32,000 bases of DNA from Geobacter metallireducens GS-15 (GCF_000012925.1 NC_007517.1:1200001-1232000); one strand, 5' to 3'; counted from the first letter of the stretch, positions 5,554 to 12,753 are shown. Numbers and translations are program-made. Notes: generated from the letters alone by a model not told the origin.

Positions 5554-8506
5554 GGTTTCGTTCTCCGGCGGGATAGGCGAGCGGCAGGGTTACCGTGGCG
5601 GTGGTTCCCTTGCCGGGAGTCGATTCGAATGTCAGCGTGCCGTCGTGTTCTCTGATGATGGCTGCGGAGATGGAGAGTCCGAGACCGGTCCCTCCCTGTT
5701 CAAGCTTGGTGGAGAAGAAGGGCTCGGTGATCCGCTCCAGAACCTCCCACTGCATCCCTTCTCCCTCATCGCGTACGCTGATGGTGACCACCGAGGCAAC
5801 GGGGTCGGCGGATGTGGAGACGGTGACCCCTGCGTCCTTGCCGGGAAGCGCCTGCAGGGCGTTCATGATCAGGTTGATGACCACCTGTTCTATCTGCTGA
5901 AATTTCCCCCGGGCCAGCGGGAGGCCTTCGGCCAGTTCCATGCGGAAATGGTCGGTGTAGCGGTGAATCTGGTAGCTGAGAATCATCTTTGCATTTTCAA
6001 CGATGTTGTTGACGGCGATCGGCACGAAAGCCTTCGCGGTATCCTCCCGGGCGAAGTCCTTGAGGTTGTTGACGATGGCGCTGATGCGGCGCGAACCCTC
6101 CTTTACCCCGTGGAGAAGGCGGGGGAAGATTCGCTCTACCTCCGCGACGGGGAGGCCGCCGAGGATGAAATCACCATTTTCGGTGCGATGGCGGTCGAGG
6201 ATCGGGACGGTGTCGCGCCAGAAACTTTCGATGAGCGATGCGTTCCCCTGGATGAAGGTGTTGGGGTTGTTTATCTCGTGGGCTATGCCGGAGACGAGGA
6301 CGCCGAGGGAGGCCATCTTGTTGGTGTGGATAAGGTGGGCATGGGTGATCTGTGCCTCTTCCTCCATGCGGATCCTCTGGGTGAGGTCGCGGATGGAGCA
6401 GTAGACCACCTCCGTGTCCCGCAGCCGGATGATTTTGCCCCAGATCGAAGAGATGAGACGGGTTCCGTCGGACCTGACAACGCCGATGCGGTTAAGGTGG
6501 AAGGGGGTCGTATCATCGACGGGGGGGATGGCCGCGATGAACGGGTTGTAGTCGTCGGGCACGATGAACGACCAGGGGCCGAGCCAGTTGAGTGACTCCT
6601 TGTCGCGGCCGATCAGTGTCTCCGCGGCCCTGTTGGCATCGATGATGTCCAGGGTTTCCCGAGCCATCAGGATGATGGCGTCCTCATTCTGTTCGAAGAT
6701 CTCCCGGAAGCGGGCTTCACTCTCACGCAGGGCCTCCTCGGCAAGGGTACTTACCGTAATGTCCTTGACGACCCCCTGCATCCGCACCGGAGCCCCTTCC
6801 GCATCGAACTCGACCTCTCCCTCTGCCCGGAGATGCCTGATCTCCCCGTCAGGGCAGATAATGCGATACGTTTTACCGTAGGGTGCCTGTTCGTGCAGAG
6901 TTGCATTGATGGTATCGTTTACGGCTTGCCGGTCGTCGGGATGGACCGCTTCCAGAAATGTTTCGTAGGTCATGTTGGGCTGGCCGGGGGGGATGCGGAA
7001 TATCCGGAGAAGTTCATCGGAAAATTGAACAGAGTTGTTGAGAATATCCCATTCCCAGTTCCCCACATGGGCAATCTGCTGGGCCCTTGCGAGCCGGGCC
7101 TCGTTCTCCCGTAGCTTCAGTTCCGCCTCCCGCCGCTCCGAAATGTCCCGGGCGATGCCCGTGGTGCCGATGACCGTTCCCGCCTCGTCATAAATGGGCA
7201 TCTTGATGGTTTCGATCCAGACTCCCTTTCCGTTGACGTCGGCGAGGGGCTCCTCGGTGCGGACCTGCTTGCCCGACGCTATGACCCGGGCGTCGTCCTC
7301 GCGATAGAGGGTGGCCAGGTCGCTGGGCCAGATGTCCAGGTCAGTCTTCCCCACCAGGTCGGCGGGGAGGGTGCCGCATGCCTGGGCAAACGCCGCGTTG
7401 ACGGTGATGAATCTGCTTTCGATGTCCTTGAGCCAGACCAGGTCGGGAATGTTGTCGAGTATGGCCTGCTGCTGTAGGCGGATCATCCGTAGCGATTCCT
7501 CGGCCTTTTCCCATTCGGTAACGTCTCGCACCACCGCCTGAAGAACCGTGCGTCCCTGGATGGTCAACGCCTTCAGGGAAACCTCGGTGTCGACCAAGGT
7601 GCCGTCCTGTCTCCGGTGCTGCCAGGGGAAGATCCCGGCTTCCCCACCCAGGGTAGTGTTAAGCATGTGTCGGGCTTTTTCGGCGGAGGGGGTGCCGTCG
7701 GACTGCAGTTCCGGAGAGAAGTGAACAGGAGATCTCCCGATGATTTCATTGCGGCTGCTGCCAAACAGTCGACACAGCTGTTCGTTGCAGTCAAAAATAA
7801 CGCCATCGAACAGGAGAATTCCCTCTGAGGAACTCTCGAAGAGGGTCCGGTACTTGGTTTCGTTGTCCTGAAGTGCCTCAAGGTGGCGTTTTCTGTCCCT
7901 GAGAACCACGAAGGCCAGAACCGTAAAGATAGTGGATATGACCGCTGCGCCGGCGATGACATTGACCTTATAGTGCTCGTACCGCGAATGGAATTCGTTC
8001 TTCCTGGCACCCACGTAGAGTACGCCGATGATTTCGCCCCGGCTGTTTCTGATGGGGTCGTAGGCGGTGAAATAGGGGATGCCGAAAATCAATGCCTCAC
8101 CGCGAAAGGGTTTGTTGTGCCTGAAGATGGCGTCGTAGGCGGGTCCGTTCAACTTGGTACCGACGGCACGGGTCCCGTCTTCCCTGCGGATGTTGGTGGC
8201 AACCCGCGTATCACCCATGAAGACCGTCGCGGTGCCGCCAAAGATCGACTGGATCATGTCAGGGAGTTCGAAATTGCCGTTCAGGACATAGTCCCCCGCC
8301 ATGAGCTTGCCGTCGACAATCCTGAAATCGGTCCCCTTGGCCCTGAGGAGCCTCCAGAAGGTCTGGATCCCCTGTTCCTGCTCCACCTTTGCCAGCCGTT
8401 CCGATTCATCGCGCATTGCCGCCAGGAAGAGGAACGTGGTGATCACGGTAGCGCCGATGACAAAGAGAATATTCAGCGCGATAACGTTTACTGTGATTTT
8501 TCGCAT
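5546..8506 (-). CDS. Sensor histidine kinase with a periplasmic Cache-like domain, about four PAS domains, HisKA and HATPase
   Basis: 986 aa. Two TM segments flank a roughly 170-aa sensor (GGTATVFMGDTRVATNI...GIPYFTAYDPI). Repeated PAS-like blocks follow, then the H-box GIAHEINNPN and the ATPase motifs NLIMNALQA, DEGEGM and GGTGLGL. Confidence 0.93.
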   Translation of the reverse strand: MRKITVNVIALNILFVIGATVITTFLFLAAMRDESERLAKVEQEQGIQTFWRLLRAKGTDFRIVDGKLMAGDYVLNGNFELPDMIQSIFGGTATVFMGDTRVATNIRREDGTRAVGTKLNGPAYDAIFRHNKPFRGEALIFGIPYFTAYDPIRNSRGEIIGVLYVGARKNEFHSRYEHYKVNVIAGAAVISTIFTVLAFVVLRDRKRHLEALQDNETKYRTLFESSSEGILLFDGVIFDCNEQLCRLFGSSRNEIIGRSPVHFSPELQSDGTPSAEKARHMLNTTLGGEAGIFPWQHRRQDGTLVDTEVSLKALTIQGRTVLQAVVRDVTEWEKAEESLRMIRLQQQAILDNIPDLVWLKDIESRFITVNAAFAQACGTLPADLVGKTDLDIWPSDLATLYREDDARVIASGKQVRTEEPLADVNGKGVWIETIKMPIYDEAGTVIGTTGIARDISERREAELKLRENEARLARAQQIAHVGNWEWDILNNSVQFSDELLRIFRIPPGQPNMTYETFLEAVHPDDRQAVNDTINATLHEQAPYGKTYRIICPDGEIRHLRAEGEVEFDAEGAPVRMQGVVKDITVSTLAEEALRESEARFREIFEQNEDAIILMARETLDIIDANRAAETLIGRDKESLNWLGPWSFIVPDDYNPFIAAIPPVDDTTPFHLNRIGVVRSDGTRLISSIWGKIIRLRDTEVVYCSIRDLTQRIRMEEEAQITHAHLIHTNKMASLGVLVSGIAHEINNPNTFIQGNASLIESFWRDTVPILDRHRTENGDFILGGLPVAEVERIFPRLLHGVKEGSRRISAIVNNLKDFAREDTAKAFVPIAVNNIVENAKMILSYQIHRYTDHFRMELAEGLPLARGKFQQIEQVVINLIMNALQALPGKDAGVTVSTSADPVASVVTISVRDEGEGMQWEVLERITEPFFSTKLEQGGTGLGLSISAAIIREHDGTLTFESTPGKGTTATVTLPLAYPAGERNHA

Positions 8507-8626: not shown

Positions 8627-9520
8627 TTAGCGGTACTGTTCCCTCATCAGGTCGGCAAAGGCGCGGGCCGCCGGGGAAAGCTCCCGCCCGTCCCGCTGCA
8701 CAAGGTAGAAAGTGCGGGAAATCTTCAGCCCGTCGACTGGAATCTCCACGAGTTCGCCGCGTCCCAGTTCCTTTCTCACCGAGATTTCCGACAGAAACGA
8801 TACTCCCAATCCGCTGGCCACGGCATGCTTGACCGCCTCGTTGCTCCCAAGGCTCGCCCGCACGGCAAGGGTGGCCGGCGCGACGCCGGCGCCGGCCAGG
8901 GCGTGCGCGATGGTCCGGGCCGTGCCGGAGCCCGGTTCGCGCATGATGAACTCCTGGCGGGCTAGGACGTCGATACCGACGGGTCCTCTGCCGGCCAGGG
9001 GGTGGGCGCTGCCGGCGATGAGCCTGATTTCGTCTCGCCCCAGGGGGGTGAAGGCGAACCCCTCGTCGTCGAAACGGCTCCCGATGATGCCGATCTCCAC
9101 CTCTTCCCGCGCCACCTTGTCCAGAATCTCCCGGCTGTCCCCCTGGAGAAGCGTCAGGCGGACACCGGGATGCCGCGCAAGGAAGAGGGGCAGGATCTCC
9201 GGGATCATGTGGTCGCCCGGAATGTTGCTTCCCCCCACGCGAAGTTCCGCCTCTTCCACCCCCCGGAAGCGCCGCATGGCCGGCTCGATCTCGCGGGCGC
9301 CCGCCACCACCCTGCGGGCGTGCTCCAGAAGGAGCTTTCCCCCCTCGGTCAGGAGCGCCCCACGCCCCGTGCGGTCCAGGAGTTTTACCCCCAGTTCATT
9401 TTCCAGGGCCGCGATATGCTGGCTCACCGTCGATTGGGTAATGAACGTGGCCTCGGCTCCCCGGGAGAAGCTGCCGCTTTCGGCCACGGCAAGGAAAACT
9501 TCCAGCTGCTTGAGGTTCAT
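8627..9520 (-). CDS. LysR-family transcriptional regulator
   Basis: 297 aa. The N-terminal wHTH MNLKQLEVFLAVAESGSFSRGAEATFITQSTVSQHIAALENELGVKLLDR is canonical for LTTRs, and a substrate-binding domain follows. Confidence 0.94.
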   Translation of the reverse strand: MNLKQLEVFLAVAESGSFSRGAEATFITQSTVSQHIAALENELGVKLLDRTGRGALLTEGGKLLLEHARRVVAGAREIEPAMRRFRGVEEAELRVGGSNIPGDHMIPEILPLFLARHPGVRLTLLQGDSREILDKVAREEVEIGIIGSRFDDEGFAFTPLGRDEIRLIAGSAHPLAGRGPVGIDVLARQEFIMREPGSGTARTIAHALAGAGVAPATLAVRASLGSNEAVKHAVASGLGVSFLSEISVRKELGRGELVEIPVDGLKISRTFYLVQRDGRELSPAARAFADLMREQYR

Positions 9521-9534
9521 GGGGGTTCTCCTGT

Positions 9535-9551
9535 TATCGGTATTTACGATA
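9535..9551. promoter_or_regulatory. Candidate LTTR box (T-N11-A dyad) in the lysR / yedF divergent region
   Basis: TATCG-GTATTTA-CGATA. This is a perfect 5-bp dyad containing T-N11-A, immediately upstream of the lysR SD. An adjacent direct repeat TTATCAA-AA-TTATCAA lies at 9565-9580. Confidence 0.35.
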
Positions 9552-9662
9552 TGAACTATTTAGTTTATCAAAATTATCAATTTGACCTTGTTCTGTCAAA
9601 TACGCAATACTTTACCAGAATTCGCTATGACGCCTGATGAACTTCGGATGAAGGGGTTTTGG

Positions 9663-10253
9663 ATGAAAATAATCGACTGCAGGAATATGGCCTGTCCCGC
9701 GCCGGTGGTTACCACCAAGCGGGCACTTGAGGAGGCGGGTGGCGAGACGGTGCAGGTCCTCGTGGACCCTGGAGCCCCCCGGGAGAACGTGATCCGCTTT
9801 GCCGAAAACCGCGGTTTTGCCGTCAGTGAAGTCGAGGCTGACAACGGTTTCGCCCTCACTATCACCTCGCCGGGGAGTGCCCCGGTCGAGCCGGTCCGGA
9901 CCGTGGCGGGGAAGGGGGGCAAGACCGTAATGCTCGTGGCCTCCGACCGGCTCGGGGACGGCCCCGAGGAGCTGGGGCGGCTCCTCATGAAGAACTTCAT
10001 CATCACCCTCCTTGACCTTGCGGAGCTTCCTGACCGGATGCTCTTCGTCAATACCGGGGTTCTTCTCACCACGGAAGGGTCCGAGGTGCTGGAGGCCCTG
10101 CAAAGCCTTGGTAATCGTGGGGTTGAGGTCCTCTCCTGCGGTGTCTGTCTCGACTTTTTCCACCGCAAGGAGAAGCTCGTGGCCGGATCGGTCACCAACA
10201 TGTTCACCATTGCCGAGAGCCTCTTGGGGGCAGGGTCGGTGGTCAGATTATAG
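9663..10253 (+). CDS. yedF: YedF-like protein: TusA/SirA-like domain fused to a DsrE-like domain (sulfur/selenium carrier family)
   Basis: MKIIDCRNMACPAPVVTTKRALEE carries the TusA CPxP motif. The C-terminal half (TVMLVASDRLG...FVNTGVLL...LSCGVCLDF) is DsrE/YedF-like. I chose the internal ATG at 9663 rather than the track start at 9582; the start is uncertain (9648 is also possible). Confidence 0.75.
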   Translation: MKIIDCRNMACPAPVVTTKRALEEAGGETVQVLVDPGAPRENVIRFAENRGFAVSEVEADNGFALTITSPGSAPVEPVRTVAGKGGKTVMLVASDRLGDGPEELGRLLMKNFIITLLDLAELPDRMLFVNTGVLLTTEGSEVLEALQSLGNRGVEVLSCGVCLDFFHRKEKLVAGSVTNMFTIAESLLGAGSVVRL

Positions 10254-11374: not shown

Positions 11375-11821
11375 CTACTTCAGCGCGTCGGCGATGGAGT
11401 GGATTTCTTCCGGGGAGAGGGTGACGTGGAATCCCATGCCCCCTGCGTTACTGTCTATGGCGGACTGGATCATCTCCGCGGTGGCCCCCCTCAGGTTGGA
11501 CATGGTGCCGTGGCAACCGGCACAGTTGCTGGTGTAGTAGAGCGATGCGCCATCCACGGGCATGGACCGCTGGGCCACTGTTTTCTTCGCGGTCTTGCGG
11601 ACGGGCGACGGCTCGGGGAAATCGGCAGATCCCCTGAAGTCCTCGGTTGCGGCAGGGGTGCCGGCGGAAGATGTGTCGGAGAGTGTCTGGCCATGTCCCG
11701 TTGTGAGGCTGGCTCCGCCGGTACTTCCCGTGGCTGTTCCTGTTATGCAGATGACGCCATATGCCGCGAAGGCAATGGCCAGGGTCAGGATTTCCGTCAA
11801 TGTGAAAGTTCTGAATTTCAT
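11375..11821 (-). CDS. Monohaem c-type cytochrome with a pilin-like N-terminal segment
   Basis: 148 aa with SD GGAGGA. A single CXXCH (NCAGCHG) plus a distal Met region (GGMGF). A low-complexity Thr/Gly/Ser linker. The N-terminus MKFRT-FTLTEILTLAIAFAAYG resembles a class III (prepilin) signal with F+1 and E+5, but has Thr rather than Gly at -1. Confidence 0.85.
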   Translation of the reverse strand: MKFRTFTLTEILTLAIAFAAYGVICITGTATGSTGGASLTTGHGQTLSDTSSAGTPAATEDFRGSADFPEPSPVRKTAKKTVAQRSMPVDGASLYYTSNCAGCHGTMSNLRGATAEMIQSAIDSNAGGMGFHVTLSPEEIHSIADALK

Positions 11822-11932
11822 GATGTCCTCCGTTGTTTCCGTGAATTCAGTTAATGTTTGTCGTTAAGGGAGATAGCCATGAAGTTTGATCTCTGTGAGA
11901 TGTCATCACCTCCTTCCGCTGCCAGCCTGTCA

Positions 11933-12052
11933 AAATAAAAAGCCGGGTCGCCGCCTATCTGTGGTGTGATAGTTCGGCAACCCGGCTGTCTCGATGAGAC
12001 CCTGTAGGCTTTCCGCCCCATCCTCGCGGATGGTTTAGTAGTATCGCTATCG
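11933..12052 (-). promoter_or_regulatory. GEMM-I cyclic-dinucleotide riboswitch, copy A (aptamer plus intrinsic terminator)
   Basis: Minus-strand RNA: GAUAGCGAUACUACUAAACCAUCCGCGAGGAUGGGGCGGAAAGCCUACAGGGUCUCAUCGAGACAGCCGGGUUGCCGAACUAUC. It matches GEMM-I hallmarks: AAACC, a GNRA-capped hairpin (GCGA), GGNNNGNAAAGCC, a second hairpin and UUGCCGA, closed by P1 GAUAG/CUAUC. The terminator has 12-bp arms GCCGGGUUGCCG/CGGCGACCCGGC (11975-11986 / 11942-11953) followed by a U-rich tract. Confidence 0.85.
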
Positions 12053-12110
12053 CCTGAAGCTATTGCCGCGGCACAAGTCTGCGTCCACGGAAATTTTCAA
12101 GGCAATCCGG

Positions 12111-12232
12111 GAAAAACAAAAAAGCCGGGTCGCCGCCTATCTATTGTGATAGTTCGGCAACCCGGCTGTCTCGATGAGACCCTGTAGGCTTTCCGCCCCA
12201 TCCTCGCGGATGGTTTAGTAGTATCGCTATCT
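12111..12232 (-). promoter_or_regulatory. GEMM-I cyclic-dinucleotide riboswitch, copy B (aptamer plus intrinsic terminator)
   Basis: About 112 nt nearly identical to copy A at an offset of 180-182 nt. The only difference is a 2-nt indel plus a substitution in the terminator loop. Terminator arms are 12155-12166 / 12124-12135, followed by UUUUUUGUUUUU. Confidence 0.85.
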
Positions 12233-12262
12233 TCAGCCAGATTCGCTGATGAAAGTGTTGCT

Positions 12263-12293
12263 ATTGTGTAACCGATTTGTTTGTGTGTGTCAA
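12263..12293 (-). promoter_or_regulatory. Candidate sigma70 promoter driving the tandem riboswitch leader
   Basis: Minus strand: TTGACA (12293-12288), a 17-nt spacer, then TACACA (or CACAAT with a 19-nt spacer). It lies about 30 nt upstream of the riboswitch B P1 stem. Confidence 0.45.
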
Positions 12294-12321
12294 CTCTTAT
12301 GTGAAACTTGTCGTGAACTGG

Positions 12322-12753
12322 TTACCGTTTAAGGCCCAGGACATAGGCAACGAGGGTTTCCACCTCGATTTCCTGGAGGTTGCCGAAAGCGGGCATGCCG
12401 CCGGGGCGTCCCTTGGTGATGGTCTCCTTGATCGCCTCGGGAGTGCGACCGTACTTGAAGTCGGCCTTCTGGAGAGAGGGGGCGCTCATCCCTTTACCCT
12501 CTTCGCCGTGGCAACCGGCGCACTGTTTCTTGAAGATGGCTTTCCCCATGGCCTGCGTCTGCTGGTCACTCATGGGGCCTCCCATGGTTGTCTGAGGGAC
12601 CGCTCCCGTGGCCGGTTTTTCGGCCGGGGCCTGGACGGGCTTTTCCTGCTGCTTGCAGCCGGCGGCTGCCAGACAGCCGGCAAGGATAGCGACAACGATG
12701 ATGCTCCTGTGTCCCGAACCCTTCAGTTTCGTCACAATGGATCTGTCATGCAT
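12322..12753 (-). CDS. Monohaem class I c-type cytochrome, probable lipoprotein
   Basis: 143 aa with SD GGAGGGAG. Lipobox-like ILAGC / AAAGC, one CXXCH (QCAGCHGEEGKG), and a distal Met motif GGMPAF. Confidence 0.88.
   Translation of the reverse strand: MHDRSIVTKLKGSGHRSIIVVAILAGCLAAAGCKQQEKPVQAPAEKPATGAVPQTTMGGPMSDQQTQAMGKAIFKKQCAGCHGEEGKGMSAPSLQKADFKYGRTPEAIKETITKGRPGGMPAFGNLQEIEVETLVAYVLGLKR

Follow-up and report, generated by a model that had tools for sequence, protein, structure and literature searches.

Hypr-GGDEF signalling controls extracellular electron transfer in Geobacter, and riboswitches that respond to cGAMP are its main known output. In the Vc2 aptamer of Vibrio cholerae the two bases of the ligand are read by G20 and C92. 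[quoted passage not shown] It forms part of an ON switch whose aptamer and terminator exclude each other; once the terminator strand is able to sequester the ligand-pairing C, the ligand is no longer bound (PMC9262584). At GSU2885 of G. sulfurreducens, RNA-seq revealed stepwise attenuation, and deletion of gacA, which encodes the cGAMP synthase, leads to loss of RNA by the second riboswitch (PMC6456294). For the c-di-GMP-I class, a catalogue of ‘pseudo-cooperative’ same-ligand arrangements lists 347 doublets and 12 triplets (Sherlock 2022, PMC9481103), and a more digital response is expected of same-ligand tandem riboswitches (PMC9481103). The riboswitch Gm1087, which controls Gmet1087, is listed as cGAMP-selective per Nelson 2015 and Kellenberger 2015 (as tabulated in PMC12285248, Table S2).

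Here we describe the leader of this gene in a window of 32,000 nucleotides from Geobacter metallireducens GS-15 (NC_007517.1:1200001-1232000), in which positions are counted from the first letter. A first-pass annotation, made before any database search, had proposed a tandem of GEMM-I riboswitches at this site. We conclude that the Gmet_1087 leader very probably carries two complete transcription-terminating GEMM-Ib (3′,3′-cGAMP-sensing) ON riboswitches in series.

Two GEMM-I aptamers upstream of a cytochrome gene

The genes of the window (PAS histidine kinase, LysR, YedF-like, transglutaminase, cytochrome c, cytochrome c, NhaA, trehalose phosphatase and PPK2) follow the same order as Gmet_1083-1092 in the supplement of PMC12285248, where Gmet_1087 is WP_004513743.1. 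The gene that follows the tandem is:

11375..11821, minus strand: Gmet_1087, encoding a 148-aa monohaem c-type cytochrome (exact match to ABB31327.1 / WP_004513743.1)

These two accessions stand for the protein of G. metallireducens GS-15 and RCH3. The protein has a CAGCH haem motif, an N-terminal hydrophobic segment and a weak match to PF13442. Expression of its gene differs several-fold between direct interspecies electron transfer co-culture conditions, and a c-type cytochrome gene of Geobacter extracellular electron transfer is a downstream context that fits GEMM-Ib. In the literature, Gmet_1087 and the upstream cytochrome gene Gmet_1088 (12322-12753) rise together in both engineered c-di-GMP strains. 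Adjoining the locus, at 8627-10253, lie a LysR regulator and a YedF/TusA-like gene, which are selenium-metabolism-associated according to the GS-15 record and unrelated to the riboswitches.

The minus strand of 11932-12231 contains a direct repeat. A repeat search found 11965-12051 to be identical to 12145-12231 (87 nt, 100% identity, offset 180 nt), and 11932-11966 to match 12114-12148 at an offset of 182 nt (35 nt, 89% identity). The near-identity and the 180-182 nt offset had been recognized in the first-pass annotation; its statement that the units differ only in the terminator loop was too strict, as the loops do differ (ACAAUA versus ACACCACA) and so, slightly, do the U-tracts (UUUUUUGUUUUU in unit A, UUUUUAUUUU in unit B). 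An Rfam cmscan at gathering thresholds returned RF01051 (c-di-GMP-I/GEMM-I) at 12229-12153 and at 12049-11973, both on the minus strand, and found no other match in the 32-kb window. Each of the two matches scored 45.0 bits against a gathering score of 35 (E = 7e-6) and spans the whole model (positions 1-87 of 87), so that the covariance model bears out the proposed GEMM-I membership of both units:

12148..12231, minus strand: Aptamer A, the upstream GEMM-Ib aptamer (RF01051 12229-12153, 45.0 bits; 88% identical to pilM/Gm0970); P1 5′ strand GAUAG 12231-12227, P1 3′ strand CUAUC 12152-12148; selectivity A 12219, A47-equivalent 12192, C92-equivalent 12165
11968..12051, minus strand: Aptamer B, the downstream GEMM-Ib aptamer (RF01051 12049-11973, 45.0 bits; 100% identical to A over 87 nt); selectivity A 12039, A47-equivalent 12012, C92-equivalent 11985

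Both units contain the two-arm GEMM-I fold, composed of P1 (GAUAG/CUAUC), a GNRA-capped hairpin (CCAUCC-GCGA-GGAUGG) and an AGCC...GGUU helix with a GUCUC/GAGAC hairpin. All of the helices that had been named earlier are thus present; the AUCG loop assigned to the GUCUC/GAGAC hairpin is actually the 3-nt loop AUC, one G having been counted twice. The two aptamers are of one class, lie on one strand in one leader with no intervening gene, and each has its own expression platform.

Assignment to RF03167 (c-di-GMP-I-GGC) was considered and rejected. In E-value mode on the 700 nt of 11700-12400 this was the top model of the clan (45.9 bits versus 45.0 for RF01051), but the score does not reach the gathering score of that model (59), and at the A47 position the units have A, not G. 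Rfam holds no separate model for the cGAMP subclass; annotation pipelines will therefore label such switches ‘c-di-GMP-I’.

Ligand selectivity

In the covariance-model alignment, A12219 of unit A and A12039 of unit B stand opposite consensus G11. This consensus position is unpaired and directly precedes G-C/C-G pairs, and it therefore corresponds to Vc2 G20. The pairs flanking the selectivity A are C-G and U-G, and the equivalents of A47 and C92 are retained, which completes the ‘AAC’ triad of the cGAMP-selective GEMM-Ib subclass. The first-pass annotation had arrived at the same A and the same adjacent pairs by hand alignment, and the alignment column confirms the A in both units. Its suggestion of a cGAMP-type ligand agrees with PMC12285248 (Table S2), where Gm1087 is tabulated as cGAMP-selective under both of the 2015 studies. 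The literature table and the homologue Gm0970 thus support the view that the two units are cGAMP-selective GEMM-Ib riboswitches.

Terminators and predicted switch polarity

Minimum-free-energy (MFE) folding predicts a terminator hairpin downstream of each aptamer:

12112..12167, minus strand: Terminator A (MFE fold); 5′ arm AGCCGGGUUGCCG 12167-12155, CUAUC 12152-12148, loop 12147-12142, GAUAG 12141-12137, 3′ arm CGGCGACCCGGC(U) 12135-12123, U-tract to 12112
11932..11987, minus strand: Terminator B (MFE fold); 5′ arm 11987-11975, CUAUC 11972-11968, loop 11967-11960, GAUAG 11959-11955, 3′ arm 11953-11941, U-tract UUUUUAUUUU to 11932

Each predicted hairpin has a 13-bp stem with a 5-bp CUAUC/GAUAG extension and is followed by a run of U. 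The GC-rich terminator and U-tract that had been noted after each aptamer were thereby recovered, with 13 + 5 bp instead of the 12 bp given earlier. A consensus scanner with a loop limit of 8 nt called neither terminator because the loops are too long, and folding was used instead. The 336-nt leader as a whole folds at −149.8 kcal/mol (z = −10.3 against shuffles); the terminator helices alone are worth −33.8 kcal/mol, compared with −20.5 kcal/mol for the aptamer secondary structure.

The terminator and the aptamer compete for the same strands. The 5′ arm of the terminator (AGCCGGGUUGCCG) is the 3′ strand of the second arm of the aptamer and includes the C92 equivalent, and the 3′ strand of P1 doubles as the inner 5′ strand of the hairpin (CUAUC). 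Their downstream partners are GAUAG and CGGCGACCCGGCU, followed by UUUUUUGUUUUU in unit A or UUUUUAUUUU in unit B. Once folded, the terminator hairpin takes both the 3′ half of the aptamer and the 3′ strand of P1 and is mutually exclusive with the aptamer. The ON-switch logic that had been deduced from this overlap is upheld, since the same architecture is found in the biophysically characterised pilM/Gm0970 ON switch. The homologue and the literature table, from which we infer the response to the ligand, support a model where each unit is a cGAMP-dependent anti-termination (ON) switch.

In the mechanism that we propose, the aptamer, while it is being transcribed, would either capture cGAMP or lose its 3′ half to the stronger intrinsic terminator. 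The contested 3′ half (AGCCGGGUUGCCG...CUAUC) holds both the C that pairs with the G of the ligand and the 3′ strand of P1, and without ligand the terminator would win. Since the terminator fold far exceeds the aptamer fold in stability, the choice has to be made kinetically, during transcription. RNA polymerase would have to pass both checkpoints, such that the amount of full-length mRNA would approximate the product of two read-through probabilities. The anticipated outcome would be a very low basal level combined with a somewhat steeper response to cGAMP from Hypr-GGDEF cyclases.

Conservation of the tandem

The orthologous cytochrome is confined to Geobacter, and the tandem lies upstream of it in all six distinct loci that we examined. 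These are G. metallireducens (the window; the RCH3 locus, L001, is identical), G. hydrogenophilus (L009), G. pickeringii (L012), two MAGs (L010 and L011) and a JGI contig (L013). A scan of the genome collection with the cytochrome alignment gave only 3 loci and missed G. metallireducens and G. pickeringii, which were recovered by exact-protein look-ups. Each of the five further loci has, upstream of the gene, two RF01051 matches separated by 180-190 nt. Over the 12 units the aptamer hardly varies although the protein has diverged to ∼ 54% identity, and the selectivity position is A in every one of the 12 orthologous copies.

Across these 12 copies, 97.7% of cells are paired in the aptamer fold. 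No covariation was found within the 12 orthologous units, the counts being empty because the aptamer is almost invariant; covariation is thus uninformative here, and it is the Rfam model that supports the fold, not the ortholog set. For the terminator, 98.6% of cells are paired, compared with 31-47% in slid controls, and the variants of the 3′ arm (GA, AA, AG and GG) all still pair with an invariant UU.

We also scanned metagenomes with a 36-nt core in which the selectivity position was set to N. The 16 exact matches, in 14 contigs, have A at this position without exception (16/16). Many of the matches lie upstream of unrelated genes (L018-L031, JGI metagenome contigs), and the near-invariance therefore belongs to the Geobacter GEMM-Ib family and not only to the Gmet_1087 locus. 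The downstream genes in L018-L031 include those for small lysine/histidine-rich secreted proteins, for predicted exported proteins of ∼ 270-300 aa and for an outer-membrane-like protein. One of these contigs, L023, holds a further tandem with a diverged second copy, where P1a is CCGCCC/GGGUGG in place of CCAUCC/GGAUGG. Both strands have changed at one pair (U-A to C-G) and a single strand at another (A-U to G-U), with pairing preserved. In L031, a T-box leader (RF00230, 122.8 bits) at 5899-6117 lies ∼ 5 kb from a single GEMM-Ib switch, which is probably coincidental. Logan short-read contigs with Gmet_1087 or a close orthologue (L002-L008 and L014-L017) end 150-205 nt upstream of the ATG, inside aptamer B. 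Evidently the identical tandem repeat breaks short-read assemblies, and tandem riboswitches are therefore likely to be under-counted in metagenomes.

Within each clade, the flanks and the terminator loops mark the copies as A-type or B-type, and a CG/GC dinucleotide in the loop of the second arm is common to both copies. In G. metallireducens, A and B do not differ anywhere in the aptamer; its closest relatives, G. hydrogenophilus and the JGI relative, have 1-2 differences between A and B. A C-to-U change (GCCUAC versus GCCCAC elsewhere) is unique to G. metallireducens and occurs in both of its copies. From this pattern we infer gene conversion between the two G. metallireducens copies, which may have been recent, with a tract that matches the boundaries of the aptamer.

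The leader outside the switches

The remainder of the leader contains the following features:

12265..12293, minus strand: candidate sigma-70-type promoter (TTGACA 12293-12288, 17-nt spacer, TACACA 12270-12265)
12052..12111, minus strand: spacer between the switches, without a promoter-like site
11906..11915, minus strand: Shine-Dalgarno-like AAGGAGGUGA, 9 of 10 positions invariant in six orthologous leaders
11826..11831, minus strand: ribosome-binding site GGAGGA, 4 nt before the ATG (read from the sequence; conserved in the orthologous-leader alignment)

TTGAC and TACA are kept at 17-nt spacing in 6/6 orthologous leaders, including that of G. pickeringii, which has a different upstream gene. 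A consensus promoter scanner made no call at 12265-12293. The conserved motif pair probably constitutes the promoter upstream of unit A. The consensus terminator scan predicted no terminator between Gmet_1088 and Gmet_1087, and read-through from Gmet_1088 into the leader, or partial co-transcription with Gmet_1087, may thus occur. In the spacer between the switches, the promoter scan found no promoter-like site and the alignment no motif common to both Geobacter clades.

The element AAGGAGGUGA lies ∼ 15-25 nt past terminator B and ∼ 85 nt before the real start codon, and is presumably complementary to the 3′ end of 16S rRNA. No conserved start codon follows it among the six orthologous leaders. 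It could serve as a standby site for the ribosome, act as a pause signal or belong to a further structure. Two candidate reading frames were discarded: a 56-aa ORF at 11851-12021, the sole ORF in the leader, which starts inside aptamer B and was judged spurious, and a 19-codon uORF after AAGGAGGUGA, which lacks conservation in the G. pickeringii clade.

Operation of two switches in one leader

A toy model, which assumes 2% leak and a 90% maximum per unit, was used to compare a single switch with two in strict series. The dynamic range rose from 45-fold for the single unit to 2000-fold for the tandem, L90/L10 fell from 81 to 42, and the effective Hill coefficient changed from 1.0 to 1.18. The first-pass annotation had anticipated a steeper, more digital response. 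This matches the accepted view of tandems, but in the model the response steepens only modestly and the main effect is to square the dynamic range. On these assumptions, the calculation suggests that the main gain of the tandem would be a tight OFF state, with less leak, and not digitality.

Both the ligand and the series arrangement can be read differently. It is highly improbable that these GEMM-I switches answer physiologically to c-di-GMP, or to c-di-GMP and cGAMP together, and not selectively to cGAMP. The published G. metallireducens RNA-seq, in which Gmet_1087 is significantly up (log2FC 2.01) in a high-c-di-GMP/lower-cGAMP strain, points in that direction, as does Gm0749, another G. 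metallireducens GEMM-I switch, which was scored as binding both ligands (PMC12285248); moreover, a match to RF01051 taken alone indicates no more than ‘c-di-GMP-I’. The authors of the RNA-seq study themselves caution, however, that biofilm effects confound the transcriptome. The A that stands in place of G20 in the two copies and in each of the 12 orthologous copies, the score of ‘cGAMP’ for Gm1087 in two independent studies (as tabulated, PMC12285248) and the 88% identity to the ∼ 1600-fold cGAMP-selective Gm0970 all argue for selective recognition of cGAMP, which we retain. In the engineered higher-cGAMP strain Gmet_1087 is up non-significantly (log2FC 1.37); since it rises most in the high-c-di-GMP/lower-cGAMP strain, cGAMP cannot be the sole input in vivo. 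As to the arrangement, the units might not be two independent checkpoints in series: the second could have its own start, or could be a redundant duplication kept only by recurrent gene conversion. The identity of the G. metallireducens copies, together with the lineage-specific C-to-U change common to both, does speak for gene conversion rather than for independent selection on each copy, and the promoter upstream of unit A is itself a candidate. We nevertheless consider this reading very unlikely, because a tandem with separate terminators and U-tracts has been kept in 6/6 distinct loci despite the divergence of the protein, the spacer is without a promoter-like motif or one conserved between clades, and the tandem GEMM-Ib of G. 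sulfurreducens attenuates stepwise.

Identical units could also cross-talk by strand exchange, with the decision at A relayed to B. By this route, ligand-bound aptamer A would free the 3′ arm of terminator A, which would then pair with the 3′ half of aptamer B and pre-empt both aptamer B and terminator B. When aptamer A is constrained, the MFE structure of the nascent transcript indeed pairs the 3′ arm of A (GAUAGGCGGCGACCCGGC) with AGCCGGGUUGCCGAACUAUC of B until the 3′ arm of B itself has been transcribed. This pairing is only a thermodynamic prediction, spans a long range (∼ 150 nt) and competes with local co-transcriptional folding; in the full-length RNA, constrained folding has local terminator B win. 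Were B simply overridden by A, it would be hard to account for an aptamer B that is conserved almost perfectly, ligand contacts included, and covariation cannot test the exchange because the 5′ arms are invariant. Both the relay and the route by which it would run are, in our judgement, unlikely. The folding model also admits a distinctly improbable combined form, in which switches kept identical by gene conversion would not be independent and would be coupled by feed-forward strand exchange from A to B. If true, the response of the tandem would depart from the simple product of two independent switches. Our preferred reading is that of two cGAMP-responsive terminators acting in series.

Comparison with described systems

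The element described here is Gm1087 of G. metallireducens: the locus is the same as that of the window, with the same downstream protein, gene order and sequence (Nelson 2015; Kellenberger 2015, per PMC12285248 Table S2). The Gmet_1087 leader is thus a catalogued cGAMP switch and its rediscovery adds no new biology. A full-text literature search with the aptamer sequence string gave no match. Already known are the element (Gm1087), the ligand class (GEMM-Ib, cGAMP), the polarity (terminator-based ON) and, as a kind, the tandem arrangement. The case illustrates that ligand subclass and switch polarity can be called correctly from sequence alone. The analysis suggests some small additions, namely the apparent homogenisation of the copies, the lowering of leak in the toy model and a speculative cross-talk by strand exchange.

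The closest single switch is that of pilM/Gm0970, whose sequence we took from the supplement of PMC9262584. It is identical to the aptamer of the window at 74 of 84 positions (88%); both have A before CUAAACC and a GNRA-capped P1a hairpin, and one P1 pair has changed in a compensatory manner from U-A to G-C. The platform is the same, in that the 3′ half of the aptamer supplies the 5′ arm of the terminator, which sequesters the ligand-pairing C (PMC9262584). The two differ in that pilM has a single switch in front of the long pilMNOPQ operon, whereas Gmet_1087 has two switches in front of one small cytochrome gene. In addition, the Gmet_1087 terminator is extended by the CUAUC/GAUAG helix, which competes directly with P1. 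Compared with Vc2, the fold is the same and the equivalents of A47 and C92 are kept; in the window, however, A replaces G20, C-G and U-G replace G21-C46 and C22-G45, and the loop-closed arm is greatly shortened, its loop having only 3 nt.

Among tandems, the nearest relative is GSU2885 a/b of G. sulfurreducens, upstream of omcAHG, where two cGAMP switches likewise lie in series in a Geobacter leader in front of cytochrome genes (Hallberg 2019, PMC6456294); the species and the target gene are different. The c-di-GMP-I tandems share the repetition of one aptamer class with an own expression platform for each copy (PMC9481103), but the ligand of the Gmet_1087 tandem is cGAMP, not c-di-GMP. The present analysis documents the conservation of the doublet upstream of this cytochrome across at least six Geobacter lineages, together with its apparent homogenisation in G. 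metallireducens.
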